Shown in pieces: positions 2,362 through 8,449 of a stretch of DNA of 64,000 nucleotides. Numbering within the stretch: position 1 is the stretch's first letter; each line of letters starts with the position of its first letter. The notes beneath the pieces were generated by a model. It searched no databases. It was not told the DNA's origin and was given only the letters and a program-made list of their open reading frames with translations. The position numbers were made by a program, and so were the translations under genes. Source of the DNA: an uncultured Nitrospiraceae bacterium (GTDB lineage: Bacteria > Nitrospirota > Thermodesulfovibrionia > Thermodesulfovibrionales > Dissulfurispiraceae); the NCBI GenBank assembly GCA_963705105.1, contig CAVPIW010000005.1, positions 416,001 through 480,000 of the forward strand. Direction: 5' to 3'.

Positions 2362-2377
2362 AGGCATCGTGTTTGCA
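2362..2377 (+). promoter_or_regulatory. Putative sigma54 -24/-12 promoter
   Basis: AGGCATCGTGTTTGCA: GG and GC separated by exactly 10 nt, about 50 nt upstream of the riboswitch. Confidence 0.55.
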
Positions 2378-2423
2378 AATGAGAGACATGAAACGGTCTC
2401 ACAGACACTGAGGCCTTCGATTG

Positions 2424-2512
2424 CTCTTTGATAAAAGCAAACTATCCGTAAGGGTAGGACGCAAAGCCATGGGTCCTTGCAATGAGTTAAGGATCGCCAG
2501 GTTGCCGGAGAC
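2424..2512 (+). ncRNA. GEMM-I cyclic-dinucleotide riboswitch aptamer (c-di-GMP-I fold; A at position 20, as in cGAMP-responsive GEMM-Ib)
   Basis: ATAAAAGCAAAC-TATCC-GTAA-GGGTA-GGACGCAAAGCC-ATGGGTCCTT...AAGGAT-CGCCAGGTTGCCG; P1 TCTTTG/CGGAGA can pair; the base before GCAAAC (2436) is A. Confidence 0.9.
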
Positions 2513-2620
2513 GACACTTTGTAGTTCCGTATCTTCAGCCGCATTTCCCAGCGCTTATTCTCCTCACGCGAACAGGCTTTTTTCGCTCGCATCGAGGCTC
2601 CTTAAGGGACGGCCTTTGCC

Positions 2621-2686
2621 AGACTGGTCCTGACAAAAGCAAACGACCCGTCAGGGTCAGTGATCGCCAGGTTGCCCGACGGTCTC
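2621..2686 (+). ncRNA. Second, internally deleted GEMM-I aptamer
   Basis: ACAAAAGCAAAC-GACCC-GTCA-GGGTC followed directly by AGTGATCGCCAGGTTGCC; the conserved GACGCAAAGCC core is missing. Confidence 0.7.
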
Positions 2687-2977
2687 ACTCTCACTACTAC
2701 GTCGTCTTTCTCTCACTCTTTCTTAATCTCAAATCGCACAACAGCACTATTTTGTCGAAAGCGCAGCATGAGGGGTTTCTCCTCCGGCACTCCCTTGCCC
2801 GATGAAACCGGTCGGGCAAGAGAAAAGAGATGAGACACAAAGAGGCGGCGATTGCGGCATTCTGCTGTGCCCCCGCAGAGTTCTAAACCGACAAATAATG
2901 ACTAAGGGAGGGATGCGAAGGCGAAAGGTGAACTCAGGAACTGTGTAGAACTATCCGACTATTTTAGGGAGGTTTTT

Positions 2978-3874
2978 ATGAGTATCTCTCGACGTGATTT
3001 TTTGAGATTCTGCGGTCTGTCCGCAGCGGCTGTGGGCTTGTCCGCAACCGATCTAATCCGCTTGGAAGAGGCCCTGGCCAGTCCGACCGCGCCTTCAATC
3101 ATCTGGCTGCAGGGCAGCGGTTGTACCGGGTGTTCCGAATCCTTTCTCAATCTGATATCCGCTTCCGGCCCGCAGACGGCTGCCGACGTATTGATCAATT
3201 CCGTCAATCTGGTTTATCACCCGACCCTCATGGCCCTGGCGGGGCAGGATGCGGTCGCCCAGGCCGTGGCGGCCTACGAAAAGGGCGGGTATCTTCTGGT
3301 TGTGGAAGGCGGCGTTCCGACCGCCTTCGGCGGTAGGGCCTGCTATGCCTGGACGTATAATGAACAGGAGTTCACCTTTGAAGAAACCGTCCTCGGCTTG
3401 GCTGCCAAGGCCGCCGGAATACTGTGCATAGGAACCTGCGCCGCTTGGGGAGGCATCCCTGCGGCTCCGCCCAACCCCGCCGGTGTCGTCGGAGTCAAGG
3501 CATTGACCGGCAGGGACACCATCAACATTCCGGGGTGCCCCACCCATCCCGACTGGATCGCCTGGACCGTGGTGCAACTGTTAACGAATACCCCTATCTC
3601 GGTTGACGGTGACGGACGGCCCACCCAGTTCTTCAGCGCCACCGTCCATGAACTGTGTCCCCGCCGCGGAGGAACGATAGCAACCGACACCATCGGTGTG
3701 GACGGCGCCTGCCTGATGGCTTTGGGCTGCCGTGGTCCGTTTACCATGTCCAATTGTCCCCAACAGAAATGGAATAACCAGGCCAACTGGTGTATCGATG
3801 CGAACGCACCCTGCATCGGATGCACCGAGCCCGGATTTCCGGGGACGGATCCCTTTTATTCCCCCGGTATTTAA
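2978..3874 (+). CDS. [NiFe] hydrogenase small subunit, Tat-exported, no C-terminal membrane anchor
   Basis: SRRDFL twin-arginine signal; CTGC, GTCA, PGCP, HELC, CLMALGC and NCP...NWC...PCIGC Fe-S ligands; GGAGG RBS. Confidence 0.96.
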   Translation: MSISRRDFLRFCGLSAAAVGLSATDLIRLEEALASPTAPSIIWLQGSGCTGCSESFLNLISASGPQTAADVLINSVNLVYHPTLMALAGQDAVAQAVAAYEKGGYLLVVEGGVPTAFGGRACYAWTYNEQEFTFEETVLGLAAKAAGILCIGTCAAWGGIPAAPPNPAGVVGVKALTGRDTINIPGCPTHPDWIAWTVVQLLTNTPISVDGDGRPTQFFSATVHELCPRRGGTIATDTIGVDGACLMALGCRGPFTMSNCPQQKWNNQANWCIDANAPCIGCTEPGFPGTDPFYSPGI

Positions 3875-3895
3875 ATCGTTTAAGGAGGCACATCT

Positions 3896-5329
3896 ATGTC
3901 AACCAAAATATTCATAGATCCCGTAACACGCCTGGAAGGACATCTCAAGATAGCGGTTACGGTCAATGAAGTGCAGGGGCAGCAACAAGTCATCAATGCC
4001 CGGGCGACCGGGACCCTGTTCCGCGGGTTTGAGGAATTGCTGGTCGGCCGTGACCCCGGAGATGCCCAGCATCTGACCCAGCGGATTTGCGGCGTTTGTC
4101 CGGTGCCCCATGGGATGGCCTCGGTCATGGCCCAGGACGCGGCCTACGGGGTGCGCGTGCCCTCGAATGCCCGCATCATGCGCAACCTGGTCATCGGCGC
4201 CAATTTCATCCAGTCCCATATCCTTCATTTTTACCATCTGACCGCCCTGGATTACGTGGAAGGACCGAACATGCCGCCCTGGCAGCCCTCCTGGAAAACA
4301 GACAAGCGCATCTCCGGAGCGGCGGCCACCAGCTTGATAGACCATTATGTGACAGCCATCGACATGACCCGCAAGGCCCATGAGATGGGCGCCCTTTTCG
4401 GGGGGCGCATGCCACACCCGCCCACCTACGTCGCCGGAGGTTTTACGGCCACGCCCCGGGCCGACCGAATCGCCAACTTCACCTCCTACCTCAACGAGTT
4501 GATCCCCTTTATCCAGAACGTCTATCTGCCCGATGTGGCCGCCCTGAGAGCGGCCTACCCGGATTATGACGCCATCGGCAGGGGCTACGGCAACCTGCTT
4601 TCCTTTGGGGTCTTCAATCAGGATTCTACGGGAAACAGGCTCTTGAGGCGGGGCCGATCGGAGAACGGCGCCACTTCCGTGCTGTCGGTCGACACGAATC
4701 AGATCAGGGAGTCGGTGCGCTATTCCTGGTATGAAGATTCCACAACCAATCTGAATCCCGCTTCGGGGCAGACACTGCCGCAAAACCCCAAAGCCAAGGC
4801 CTATTCCTGGCTCAAGGCCCCCCGCTATGGCGGTGCGCCTTATGAAGTAGGCCCACTGGCCCGGATGTGGGTCAACGGAGACTATCGACGGGGGATTTCC
4901 GTCATGGACCGACACCAGGCCCGGGCCCAGGAAACGCTGAAGATAGCGCAGGCCATGCGGTCCTGGGTGTCTCAGCTTCGGCCGGATGGAGCGGTGTACA
5001 CCAAACCGACGATTCCACCCTCTGCGTCCGGCGTGGGTCTCACCGAGGCGCCCCGAGGCGCCCTGGGGCATTGGTTCCGAATGGATGCGGGCAAGATTTC
5101 GAGCTATCAGGTCATTACCCCGACCTGCTGGAACGCCTCTCCCGAGGACGACGCCAGTCAGATGGGTCCCGTCGAAAACGCCCTGATCGGCACGCCGGTC
5201 AAGAACTTAGCGGAACCCATCGAGGTCCTGCGGGTCATTCATTCCTTCGACCCCTGCCTCGCATGCGCCGTCCATGTTTCCCGGCCCAAAGAACAGGCCC
5301 AAATCCGGATCGTTGCCGGTTATCGGTAA
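3896..5329 (+). CDS. [NiFe] hydrogenase large subunit, group 1a-like (Cys, no Sec)
   Basis: DPVTRLEGH, L1 QRICGVCPVPH, EAPRGALGH, L2 HSFDPCLACAVH followed by a cleavable C-terminal tail. Confidence 0.96.
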   Translation: MSTKIFIDPVTRLEGHLKIAVTVNEVQGQQQVINARATGTLFRGFEELLVGRDPGDAQHLTQRICGVCPVPHGMASVMAQDAAYGVRVPSNARIMRNLVIGANFIQSHILHFYHLTALDYVEGPNMPPWQPSWKTDKRISGAAATSLIDHYVTAIDMTRKAHEMGALFGGRMPHPPTYVAGGFTATPRADRIANFTSYLNELIPFIQNVYLPDVAALRAAYPDYDAIGRGYGNLLSFGVFNQDSTGNRLLRRGRSENGATSVLSVDTNQIRESVRYSWYEDSTTNLNPASGQTLPQNPKAKAYSWLKAPRYGGAPYEVGPLARMWVNGDYRRGISVMDRHQARAQETLKIAQAMRSWVSQLRPDGAVYTKPTIPPSASGVGLTEAPRGALGHWFRMDAGKISSYQVITPTCWNASPEDDASQMGPVENALIGTPVKNLAEPIEVLRVIHSFDPCLACAVHVSRPKEQAQIRIVAGYR

Positions 5330-5362
5330 ACCTGGAAGAAGGTTGTTCTACGGAAAATCAAA

Positions 5363-5956
5363 GTGAAGAAACAATCAAACAGAGCCGGGAGGATTGTTGA
5401 GCCAAGGCCGAGGATCCTTATCGCCGGGATGGGAAATATCCTGCTCCGGGACGACGGCGTCGGCGTTCATGCCGTACAGGGTTTTCCCCCGGCCGAGAAT
5501 CAGGAATACCGGGTTGTCGAGGTCGGCTGTGCGGTGTTTGACACTCTGGACCATTTTGACTGGGCGGAAAGGATCCTGCTCATCGATGCCATGCAGGCCG
5601 GGAGGGCGCCCGGGACCGTTTATCGTGTCGACAGTTTAACGGATATGGATGCTGGAACCATGGCAGCCTCTCTCCATGAGTTTTCGGTGATCCAGGCCCT
5701 CGGAATGATTCAAAAAGATCCCATGCCGGCCGTTACGATCATCGGCGTCGAACCGGAGGTCATCGACTATGGTCTGGAGCTTTCCGGTACAGTGGCCGCT
5801 TCCCTCCCCCTGGTCTGGGAAACCGGCCGCCAAATTATCGAGGACTGGATCAGGAACTGTCACGTCCAGGACCCGATGCCATTCCAGGAGAACGTCAACT
5901 GCCCGTGTCGGATATCAGCGAAAGTTGACTCTCCCATCCACCTGGAACAACTATGA
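5363..5956 (+). CDS. Hydrogenase maturation protease (HyaD/HybD family)
   Basis: GMGNILLRDDGVG, LIDAM and SLHE motifs; start codon uncertain. Confidence 0.93.
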   Translation: MKKQSNRAGRIVEPRPRILIAGMGNILLRDDGVGVHAVQGFPPAENQEYRVVEVGCAVFDTLDHFDWAERILLIDAMQAGRAPGTVYRVDSLTDMDAGTMAASLHEFSVIQALGMIQKDPMPAVTIIGVEPEVIDYGLELSGTVAASLPLVWETGRQIIEDWIRNCHVQDPMPFQENVNCPCRISAKVDSPIHLEQL

Positions 5957-5979
5957 ATACCAGCTTAAGGAGAACCAAT

Positions 5980-8349
5980 ATGAGAATTTCCAAAATAACC
6001 ATCCCCTTGATTAGTCTGGCGGCCGTGCTGCTGATCTCCAGCCACGTATTCGGAGTCAGTTCCTATACCACCTCGTTTAACGCCCGGTATGGGACGGCCG
6101 CCGGCACGGCTCTGGGTGCCAATAGTAGCGCTCGCTGCATCCTTTGCCATCCCGGTGGGAATACCAGCCAGTACACTTCCTATGCCAACGATTTCAGGAA
6201 CAACAATCACAATTATGCGACCATCGAACCGTTGGATTCGGACGGAGACGGCTTTTCCAATTTAGCCGAGATCACCGCTCTGACCCTCCCCTATGACGCC
6301 AACAGCCGTCCAACGACCAGTGCTGACACCACCCTGCCGGTGGTCTCGACCTTTACCGTCCCGGCCACGGCCACAACCCTGACCGTACCGATCTCCGCCC
6401 TGACCGCTACCGACAACGTGGGCGTGACCGGCTACCTGGTCAACGAAAGCGCCACCAAGCCTGCGGCCGGCAACTGGCCCGCTGCGGCCCCCACCAGCTA
6501 TACCTTTACCACCGCCGGGGCCAAAACCCTCTACGCCTGGGCAAGGGATGCCGCCGGCAACGTCTCCAACAGCCTGAGCCGGCCCGTGACCGTCACCCTG
6601 CCTCCGACGGCTGACACCACCCTGCCGGTGGTCTCGACCTTTACCGTCCCTACCACGGCCACAACCCTGACCGTACCGATCTCCGCCCTGACCGCTACCG
6701 ACAACGTGGGCGTGACCGGCTACCTGGTCAACGAAAGCGCCACCAAGCCTGCGGCCGGCAACTGGCCCGCTGCGGCCCCCACCAGCTATACCTTTACCAC
6801 CGCCGGGACCAAAACCCTCTACGCCTGGGCAAGGGATGCCGCCGGCAATGTCTCCAACGCCCTGAGCCGGCCCGTGACCGTCACCCTGCCTCCGACGGCT
6901 GACACCACCCTGCCGGTGGTCTCGACCTTTACCGTCCCTACCACGGCCACAACCCTGACCGTACCGATCTCCGCCCTGACCGCTACCGACAACGTGGGCG
7001 TGACCGGCTACCTGGTCAACGAAAGCGCCACCAAGCCTGCGGCCGGTAACTGGCCCGCTGCGGCCCCCACCAGCTATACCTTTACCACCGCCGGGACCAA
7101 AACCCTCTACGCCTGGGCAAGGGATGCCGCCGGCAATGTCTCCAACAGCCTGAGCCGGCCCGTGACCGTCACCCTGCCTCCGACGGCTGATACCACCCTG
7201 CCGGTGGTCTCGACCTTTACCATCCCGGCCACGGCCACTACCCTGACCGTACCGATCTCCGCCCTGACCGCTACCGACAACGTGGGCGTGACCGGCTACC
7301 TGGTCAACGAAAGCGCCACCAAGCCTGCGGCCGGCAACTGGCCCGCTGCGGCCCCCACCAGCTATACCTTTACCACCGCCGGGGCCAAAACCCTCTACGC
7401 TGGCAGGGATGCCGCCGGCAATGTCTCCAACGCCCTGAGCCGGTCCGTGACCGTTACTTCCGGCGACAGCGGCGGGGTCGATGTGGAATCTCCCGAGGTC
7501 ATGGAATTTACCTTGCCCCTGACCGGCACTTCTCTCACCGTGCCGATCATGGCCTTCCGGGCCATTGATAACATCAGCCCGACCGCTTATCTGATCACTA
7601 CCACCCCGACAGCGCCGTCGGCAAGCGATCCAGGCTGGAGAGCCACCCCGCCGACCAGCTACACCTTTACCTCCGCGGGCGCCAAAACACTGTACGGGTG
7701 GGCTAAGGATGCCGCCGGCAACGTCTCGGAAAGTGTTTGGGACAACGTGGGCATCACCGCACCGCCCCAGACAACTTCGTACACGCTGAGCGTGTCCAGA
7801 GCGGGAACAGGCTCTGGCACCGTGACGAGCGCCCCAGCCGGCGTGAGCTGTGGCACTGACTGCTCCCAGACCTATGCAGCAGGGACCCAAGTGAGCCTCA
7901 CCGCTGCGGCGTCGCCCGGTTCTGTTTTCTCCGGCTGGTCCGGGGCTTGCACAGGACCAGGGACCTGCACGGTGACGTTGAGCGCCGCCCGCTCGGTGAC
8001 GGCGACCTTCAACACCGCGCCGGCGGGATCGGCGCCTAACATTTCCGCTCCGTCCTCCTACAGCTTTGGGGAGACGCATTTGGACTCCACAAGCAGTCGC
8101 ACCATTGTGGTCAGCAACACCGGCTCGACCACGCTCCGGGTGACGGGTATTACGAAGAGCGGTACCGACGCCGGGATGTTCACAGTAGGGGTCAGCTCCT
8201 TCACTGTTGCGCCTGGAGGGACCTACAACCTCCCGGTAACCTTTAGACCAACCTCCGAAGGCACGAAGAACGCGACCCTGAGGCTCTCCACGAACGATCC
8301 TGACACAGCGGTCTGGCAGATCAGTCTGTCCGGCAGGGGAGAGGATTAG
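5980..8349 (+). CDS. Secreted repeat protein with an N-terminal single heme-c motif, five Ig-like repeats, an InlB-B-like repeat and a C-terminal ASH/choice-of-anchor-D-like domain
   Basis: AGGAG RBS before ATG 5980; signal peptide; CILCH then DSDGDGFSNLAEI; 4 near-identical plus 1 diverged 96-aa Thr/Ala-rich repeats (TDNVGVTGY, YAWARDAAGNVS); YTLSVSRAGTGSGTVTS...CGTDC; VVSNTGSTTL...FRPT...LSTNDP. Confidence 0.85.
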   Translation: MRISKITIPLISLAAVLLISSHVFGVSSYTTSFNARYGTAAGTALGANSSARCILCHPGGNTSQYTSYANDFRNNNHNYATIEPLDSDGDGFSNLAEITALTLPYDANSRPTTSADTTLPVVSTFTVPATATTLTVPISALTATDNVGVTGYLVNESATKPAAGNWPAAAPTSYTFTTAGAKTLYAWARDAAGNVSNSLSRPVTVTLPPTADTTLPVVSTFTVPTTATTLTVPISALTATDNVGVTGYLVNESATKPAAGNWPAAAPTSYTFTTAGTKTLYAWARDAAGNVSNALSRPVTVTLPPTADTTLPVVSTFTVPTTATTLTVPISALTATDNVGVTGYLVNESATKPAAGNWPAAAPTSYTFTTAGTKTLYAWARDAAGNVSNSLSRPVTVTLPPTADTTLPVVSTFTIPATATTLTVPISALTATDNVGVTGYLVNESATKPAAGNWPAAAPTSYTFTTAGAKTLYAGRDAAGNVSNALSRSVTVTSGDSGGVDVESPEVMEFTLPLTGTSLTVPIMAFRAIDNISPTAYLITTTPTAPSASDPGWRATPPTSYTFTSAGAKTLYGWAKDAAGNVSESVWDNVGITAPPQTTSYTLSVSRAGTGSGTVTSAPAGVSCGTDCSQTYAAGTQVSLTAAASPGSVFSGWSGACTGPGTCTVTLSAARSVTATFNTAPAGSAPNISAPSSYSFGETHLDSTSSRTIVVSNTGSTTLRVTGITKSGTDAGMFTVGVSSFTVAPGGTYNLPVTFRPTSEGTKNATLRLSTNDPDTAVWQISLSGRGED
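6322..7455 (+). repeat. Intragenic tandem repeat, 288-bp unit x4
   Basis: GCTGACACCACCCTGCCG (one mismatch in copy 4) recurs at 6322, 6610, 6898 and 7186. Confidence 0.97.
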
Positions 8350-8406
8350 TTCAGTCAAACCGCGTTTTTTCTGCGGGGCGGCCGTCTGATCCTTATGCCG
8401 GCTCAC

Positions 8407-8449
8407 AGGCGGGCGGAGAGAGACACCCTCTCTCCACCCGCCTCTTTTT
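8407..8449 (+). terminator. Rho-independent terminator of the hydrogenase-cytochrome operon
   Basis: AGGCGGGCGGAGAGAG-ACACC-CTCTCTCCACCCGCCT followed by CTTTTT. Confidence 0.8.

Follow-up and report, generated by a model that had tools for sequence, protein, structure and literature searches.

A [NiFe] hydrogenase operon with a stalked CxxCH protein behind a GEMM riboswitch in an uncultured Nitrospiraceae bacterium: a possible module for H2 and electron exchange at the cell surface

What might a secreted hydrogenase do with a long, stalked CxxCH protein as its neighbor? The question is raised by positions 2362-8449 of a 64,000-nucleotide stretch of DNA from an uncultured Nitrospiraceae bacterium (GCA_963705105.1, contig CAVPIW010000005.1, positions 416,001 to 480,000; hereafter the window), where four genes, all co-oriented, follow a GEMM riboswitch. 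An initial annotation, made from the letters alone, had proposed a cyclic-dinucleotide-controlled surface module that exchanges H2 or electrons with minerals, metal, or partner cells. The operon is real, recurrent, and apparently undescribed, and both the pairing of hydrogenase with heme and the link to cyclic-dinucleotide control recur far beyond chance placement. It is tentatively read, with a probability somewhat short of even, as a surface-lifestyle module trading electrons between H2 and outside partners via heme, beyond the outer membrane. The unit consists of the following features:

2362..2376, + strand: sigma54-like -24/-12 site, weak, with 2 mismatches; similar sites at a second operon (contig C16) and at homologous loci, with rpoN in the host
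2427..2510, + strand: GEMM-I cyclic-dinucleotide riboswitch aptamer, intact (Rfam RF03167, RF01051)
2624..2675, + strand: degenerate second aptamer copy, 32 central bases gone, likely non-functional
2978..3874, + strand: [NiFe] hydrogenase small subunit, carrying a signal for twin-arginine translocation (Tat) and no membrane anchor
3896..5329, + strand: [NiFe] hydrogenase large subunit, Cys-type (R63-C65-C68; D452-C454-C457-H460)
5363..5956, + strand: hydrogenase maturation protease (PF01750, TIGR00072)
5980..8349, + strand: secreted stalked protein of 789 amino acids, with a Sec-type signal, no lipobox, and no membrane tail
6052..6324, + strand: head domain, temptin-like, with CxxCH and a DSDGDG..N..E loop; N-terminal part of the NCBIfam GEGP diheme family
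6325..7779, + strand: five immunoglobulin (Ig)-like (PKD/FnIII-like) repeats of ~96 amino acids, the first four nearly identical
7816..8307, + strand: divergent InlB B-repeat (PF18998) and choice-of-anchor D domain (NF012200, 64.7 bits; cut-off 45)
8407..8449, + strand: intrinsic terminator-like hairpin (8407-8443, read from the sequence) and U-run

The hydrogenase genes bear out the initial annotation, which had named an anchorless Tat small subunit, a group-1a-like large subunit, and a protease (here matched by PF01750 and TIGR00072), with no cytochrome b in the unit; none is found within 2362-8449. The small subunit carries the Tat motif SRRDFL (TIGR01409, 22.5 bits; cut-off 16.7), ends 16 residues past its distal-cluster cysteines without a hydrophobic helix, and has the medial-cluster Cys of [NiFeSe] enzymes (Cys in 75 of the 80 homologous loci described below); it is predicted to carry three [4Fe-4S] clusters. 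The closest solved relatives of the large subunit are the periplasmic [NiFeSe] enzymes (8e-131), and its C-terminus bears a 17-residue extension behind the motif DPCLACAVH, with Cys where [NiFeSe] enzymes have selenocysteine. In a tree of 101 sequences, from which L032 (a split gene) was left out and which replaced an earlier one that had lost 25 loci to a strict motif filter, the window clade is sister to 10 selenocysteine-type HysA sequences and stands apart from 1b/1c-like sequences and those of the archaeal corrosion (MIC) family; the small-subunit alignment covered 59 of the 80 loci. By sequence, the window enzyme belongs beside group 1a. It shares with HysAB (group 1a; PDB 2WPN, 1CC1; NF045518/NF045520/NF033181) the anchorless Tat small subunit, the medial-cluster Cys, and the lack of a cytochrome b, and the large subunits of these sister clades are 44-47% identical, but it has Cys instead of selenocysteine. 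HysAB proper is ruled out by this Cys-type motif and by scores below the cut-offs of NF045518 (539.8 of 780 bits) and NF045520 (256.4 of 470 bits). Partner genes, heme fusions, acidic tails, and GEMM leaders were all unseen at the 10 selenocysteine-type HysA loci within their short flanks, whereas the window-type clade has them.

Does the pairing recur elsewhere? Homologous loci were collected with the large subunit and six peptide patterns, and the best 80 of 169 found, which come from related genomes, are biased by the patterns used, and are not independent, span Deltaproteobacteria, Geobacter, Acidobacteriota, Planctomycetota, Verrucomicrobiota, Armatimonadota, and others. A downstream scan took in 75 open reading frames (ORFs) from 73 loci, with L035, L036, and L076 grouped by eye as adhesin-like (shared N-terminal sequence) and L050 as heme-head (similar to L007). 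The stalk gene lies directly downstream in five loci (L001, L002, L003, and L029, 79-83%; L005, 70%), and other heme proteins are next in four (choice-of-anchor V monoheme or decaheme), where choice-of-anchor V represents, in L007 and L050, a second heme-head family at the same place. In 17 of the 80, on two separate branches, the small subunit continues at its C-terminus, beside the distal cluster, into a fused tail with one to four CxxCH motifs, which 0 of the 10 selenocysteine-type HysA loci carry. Large secreted adhesin-like proteins with choice-of-anchor D, cadherin-like, CARDB, or LVIVD domains are next in 13 loci, and in L042 the small subunit itself carries fused Ig repeats; in all, half of the loci (40/80) have a heme or adhesin-like partner of some kind. 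Cytochrome b (four queries) and HybB gave no match in the 80 loci, the HybA-like matches in two loci lie several kilobases off, and no clear membrane anchor was found on the small subunits. The heme, set beside the distal cluster by fusion (17 loci) or provided by the next gene (9 others and twice in this genome), is best read as the putative electron partner of the enzyme, replacing cytochrome b or c3. Cytochrome c3 is the partner of group 1a periplasmic hydrogenases.

The tatA gene is directly downstream in 7 of the 80 loci, and an acidic [DE]D C-terminus ends 25 of the 80 small subunits, compared with 8 of 2348 long host ORFs. The enzyme has a patchy distribution, which suggests lateral spread: among 239 Geobacterales, 8 have close matches (E below 1e-160), and of 400 genomes from the host's phylum, 2 have small-subunit matches of 58-59%, neither with a heme partner. 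The synteny check gave a mixed answer, with the pairing in five loci, 17 heme fusions, and GEMM in five Geobacterales on one side, but the full trio of GEMM, hydrogenase, and stalked heme protein seen in this genome only, where it occurs twice.

Several peculiarities were seen among the homologs. An acidic tail also ends the stalk proteins of the window, L001, L003, and L005, and is a possible sorting signal. Two Geobacterales small subunits (L143:3532-4707 and L144:7166-8347) have a long Cys-rich C-terminal extension of repeated CxxC, and the accompanying large subunits stop at the final His, with no extension and no protease. In planctomycete and verrucomicrobial loci (L023, L035-L038, L048, L055, L076, L061, L064, L068), the operon-terminal genes encode secreted proteins of 560-1700 amino acids with a DUF2271-like head, choice-of-anchor D or CARDB domains, and LVIVD propellers. 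The locus L054, labelled as a Methanobacteriota archaeon, has a hydrogenase of this bacterial type and shares its next gene with the Nitrospiraceae locus L043, through either transfer or misbinning.

The second trio of the host genome lies on contig C16 (L081:7824-12180), where a near-consensus sigma54 site and a GEMM aptamer precede an anchorless Tat small subunit, a large subunit, and a CxxCH stalk gene whose start overlaps the large-subunit stop; this unit has no protease gene. Its stalk protein is shorter, with the same head, an InlB-B repeat, and a choice-of-anchor D domain. The C16 large subunit is 39% identical to that of the window and groups with 1b/1c-like enzymes. In the C16 small subunit, Asp occupies the position held by the medial Cys in [NiFeSe] enzymes and by Pro in [NiFe] 1b enzymes. 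A single genome has two unrelated hydrogenases with the same partner in overlapping or abutting frames, which is hard to reconcile with the stalk protein being only a co-regulated neighbor, that is, an adhesin or a surface redox or gas sensor that shares a surface-lifestyle promoter without being the redox partner; independent heme fusions and the choice-of-anchor V heme heads of L007 and L050, which occupy the same place, point the same way. Such co-regulation is suggested by the head family itself, a large one that numbers 1925 representatives at E<=1e-10 (some via the Asp-rich loop alone), is mostly stand-alone, and occurs in further copies without hydrogenase in the host (G000). Since head-domain genes are also found near kdsA/kdsD in a relative without hydrogenase, the C16 pairing may be an insertion. 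Over the loci of host relatives and Desulfobacterota, the stalk family stands beside a hydrogenase in 1 of 45, and as the family is mostly not beside hydrogenases, the link is taken as recruitment in some lineages and not as the family's only job. Taken together, mere co-regulation of neighbors is considered unlikely. Beside the C16 operon, on the opposite strand (L081:6071-7791), a head-domain gene is fused to CHRD domains, with a frameshift between CxxCH and DSDGDG that is either real or an assembly error.

Is the unit under cyclic-dinucleotide control? The aptamer at 2427-2510 scores 63.5 bits against RF03167 (threshold 59) and 68.8 bits against RF01051 (threshold 35), above both gathering thresholds. 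The plural GEMM aptamers of the initial annotation are reduced to this one, as the second copy lacks the complete P2-junction-P3 core, scores 15 bits under a model built in the analysis, and has no Rfam match even at E<=10; on the 32-base deletion and the absent match, a tandem riboswitch is rejected for the window locus. A related contig (run X5) has one aptamer fused straight to the downstream leader, and among contigs of other runs none covers 2644-2695, so the deletion is seen in the assembly alone. Matches from the small-share runs X2-X7 are no evidence of habitat. Behind the window aptamer, sequence scans found no clear terminator that could serve as an expression platform.

In an alignment of the five host aptamers over the cut-off, two of which head the hydrogenase and heme-stalk operons of the window and C16, the specificity position is A in the window aptamer and G in the other four, C16 included. 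This column is presumed to be Vc2 position 20. A at position 20 is associated with a preference for cyclic GMP-AMP (cGAMP), although A20 aptamers may be bispecific, and G with cyclic di-GMP (c-di-GMP) (PMC6140456); because of this rule, the window aptamer would prefer cGAMP (or both ligands) and the C16 aptamer c-di-GMP. One of the 12 host GGDEF regions (G000:C8:46626-46877; GGDDF motif) carries a Ser at the Hypr position (as defined in PMC6456294) and is no more than a candidate cGAMP synthase. In Geobacter, GEMM-Ib regulons include outer-surface electron-transfer genes (pgcA, omcAHG, omcS; PMC6456294); the riboswitch class is the same as here, a secreted heme protein lies downstream in both, and window and Geobacter aptamers have A at the specificity position, whereas C16 has G. 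No hydrogenase was seen among the regulon members in the available portion of that paper (PMC6456294). A GEMM aptamer lies 5' of the small subunit in 4 of the 80 loci, all from Geobacter/Geobacteraceae with a heme fusion; L046 adds a cut-off hit, and G511 has GEMM in tandem. The riboswitch precedes the heme-fused form in five Geobacterales genomes. Elsewhere, near-identical GEMM leaders (L084:8995-10082 and L085:1805-2860) each precede a secreted protein of ~260 amino acids without a Pfam match at 1e-5.

The sigma54-like promoter of the initial annotation is retained in part: the site at 2362 exists and its position recurs, but it has 2 mismatches, and such sites occur across the window at chance level (46 seen, 53 expected). 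It lies 60 nucleotides 5' of the aptamer (1.6% of random 100-nucleotide segments contain one), the C16 aptamer has a 1-mismatch site 44 nucleotides upstream (0.13% of random segments), and sites with <=2 mismatches occur <=800 nucleotides upstream in five of six homologous loci checked, which are related and AT-rich. The site gains weight from position and recurrence only. The host genome has rpoN, and a sigma70 scan of the operon leader found no site. The single terminator closing the unit was confirmed as the hairpin at 8407-8443 with its U-run, which had been overlooked by a simple terminator scan and was seen on closer sequence analysis. Between these ends, a near-identical contig (from an independent or the source run) covers 4605-6351, so the protease-stalk gene junction is real as DNA.

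What does the stalked protein carry? The secreted CxxCH protein on a repeat stalk was recovered as initially annotated, with a signal peptide, one CxxCH (6136-6150) in a 90-amino-acid head, and five ~96-amino-acid repeats; the frame can also start at 5953, where it overlaps the stop of the protease, and the protein ends in ...GED. The repeats are Ig-like sandwiches akin to the PKD and FnIII domains of extracellular enzymes and adhesins (all E above 0.001), and the stalk totals seven beta-domains. Beta-domains are ~4 nm long each, which would give a stalk of roughly 25-30 nm. In the fourth repeat (7396-7410), the Trp of the YAWARD motif is missing through three single-base gaps that keep the frame, possibly an assembly error because a related contig has the bases.

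For the head, Temptin_C (PF24784) matches 21 of 21 aligned heads (best 4e-18, some over the cut-off) and the GEGP diheme family (NF041762) matches 75 of 75 homologs over positions ~42-140, but the window head stays below both cut-offs (17.5 of 27 and 35 of 300 bits), has one CxxCH, and resembles no solved structure. Its structure model (pLDDT 82) matched no solved or viral fold (best Z 2.1, no Foldseek match), which is not proof of a new fold, and ESM Atlas matches at 0.89-0.90 are leads only. The exported CxxCH together with heme-c assembly genes in the host makes the protein a putative c-type cytochrome, and 120 of 120 full-domain representatives retain CxxCH, N-terminal in 118. The invariance of C, C, and H in these homologs, the export of the domain, its frequent fusion to multiheme modules, and its part-match to a diheme family in 75 of 75 cases make it very improbable that the motif is heme-free and instead forms a disulfide or binds a metal, as it may in animal temptins, on a stalk that tethers or scaffolds the exported hydrogenase. 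A heme-free head would fit the lack of a matching solved fold, the lack of an invariant distal ligand (no invariant His or Met in the 120 homologs; best His 56%), and the 13 loci with heme-free adhesin-like partners. Of the 75 homologs, 11 match models for sorting or anchoring at the C-terminus (CFI-box-CTERM or choice-of-anchor U/D). The host also encodes a secreted protein with two CxxCH, a reeler-like head, choice-of-anchor-D-like repeats, and an ...EEDD end (G000:C8:79342-81711), a putative second heme-on-stalk family.

How might such a module work? Under the tentatively preferred reading, which places the module beyond the outer membrane, sigma54 and cGAMP/c-di-GMP would control a single transcript that is switched on during surface growth. 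The folded hydrogenase would leave via Tat and the stalk protein via Sec, followed by heme attachment, and both could then pass the outer membrane through the type II secretion system of the host, for which a type II secretion-like cluster lies directly behind a 3005-amino-acid secreted repeat protein (G000:C14:225494-246525). The predicted heme would relay electrons between the outermost iron-sulfur cluster of the hydrogenase and a mineral, metal, or partner cell, and the stalk, itself non-conducting, would keep the heme away from the cell. With a single heme and a stalk that does not conduct, electrons could not be wired to the cell, so H2 is the likely diffusible link between the module and the membrane-bound Hyb hydrogenase of the host. 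A Hyb-type operon is present on contig C10 (L083:7822-12784), with a TGA codon, likely selenocysteine, at the second Cys of the N-terminal CxxC of its large subunit. Unless the heme has a very low potential, H2 oxidation with reduction of an outside acceptor would be easier than the reverse; a corrosion-like alternative would be H2 evolution from a reduced solid.

The adhesin-like partners, tatA, cyclic-dinucleotide control, the type II secretion-like locus, and the acidic tail point to a location beyond the outer membrane. If this reading holds, the window enzyme would be a functional analogue of the archaeal MIC hydrogenase FohAB (PMC6181927, PMC7848899, PMC12667266), an anchorless Tat-exported [NiFe] enzyme that also has its own protease, a secreted partner, and a variable hydrophilic small-subunit tail; the tatA gene next in seven homologous loci recalls the archaeal core (PMC6181927). 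The two differ in that the window large subunit is 29.6 and 28.6% identical to those of two micH loci, which fall outside the window clade, that 2362-8449 lacks the FohE carbonic-anhydrase-like gene and tatAC, that the window host has an outer membrane to cross, and that the window partner bears a heme motif. Large subunits within the MIC family are about 90% or more identical (PMC7848899). The comparison also drew on PMC9481103, PMC2996986, and PMC8835794.

Several observations weigh against a surface module. MIC membership is ruled out by the 29-30% identity and the missing fohE/tatAC, and no precedent for secretion of a [NiFe] hydrogenase across the outer membrane was found in the literature searched; in a Desulfovibrio proteome, supernatant hydrogenase was put down mainly to lysis or vesicles (PMC13638558). 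Group 1a is tabulated as periplasmic, and an anchorless hydrogenase with a c-type partner is its norm (PMC5037454). Half of the homologous loci (40/80) are without a heme or adhesin partner, no second axial ligand is invariant in the head, and head-domain genes are stand-alone in 15 of 15 loci of host relatives and in 29 of 30 Desulfobacterota loci (1.5-kilobase flanks only). The cyclic-dinucleotide-controlled module of the initial annotation accordingly stands in its recurrent hydrogenase-heme pairing and GEMM link but not in a general association with the stalk family; GEMM was absent from the DNA examined at the five other stalk loci (the four closest syntenic ones and L005); four of these five genomes, when searched, had 1-2 GEMMs each elsewhere.

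A periplasmic group-1a-like uptake hydrogenase would account for part of this. The heme head or fused heme would replace cytochrome c3 and feed the periplasmic cytochrome pool in surface respiration, and the stalk would only position the head in the envelope. The closest solved relatives and the definition of group 1a are in keeping with such a location, the 17 heme fusions require no outer-membrane step, and the host has dsrA and 30 ORFs with three or more CxxCH. Left unexplained are the long stalk with its choice-of-anchor D domain, the 13 heme-free adhesin-like partners, the Ig-fused small subunit in L042, and the acidic tails, and the periplasmic explanation, although the chief alternative, is rated rather unlikely. 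Equally doubtful is a much broader generalization of the surface reading: that diderm anaerobes of several phyla, without descent from the archaeal MIC enzyme, evolved a secreted [NiFe] hydrogenase that is either displayed at the cell or set free from it, together with an adhesin stalk or a heme tip, and that interconverts H2 and electrons on minerals, steel, or partner cells, under cyclic-dinucleotide control in some lineages, with the acidic tail as a tag for secretion through the outer membrane and the head as a new heme-c fold.

The initial annotation had not recognized the combination as a described system, and the literature agrees in that no description of the hydrogenase and stalked-heme pairing was found in the articles covered, although published tables of genes behind GEMM-I may list hydrogenases. 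If the enzyme acts outside the outer membrane, bacteria would have their own equivalent of the archaeal corrosion hydrogenase, and there would be a concrete way for H2 to mediate electron exchange with iron minerals, steel, electrodes, or syntrophic partners. Such exchange has long been debated in sulfate reducers and Geobacter. Even if periplasmic, the system would extend group 1a by an undescribed branch whose hemes are built in, provide a case of cyclic-dinucleotide control over a hydrogenase, and give an orphan heme domain a candidate physiological partner. Cultured Geobacter hydrogenophilus DSM 13691 (L051) has the riboswitch-led, heme-fused form with tatA, which makes the system directly testable. 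Upstream of the operon, at 1504-1543 of the window, a short palindromic repeat (ATTCCCGCGCAGGCGGGAAT), resembling repetitive extragenic palindromic (REP) elements, is matched by many contigs of other runs.

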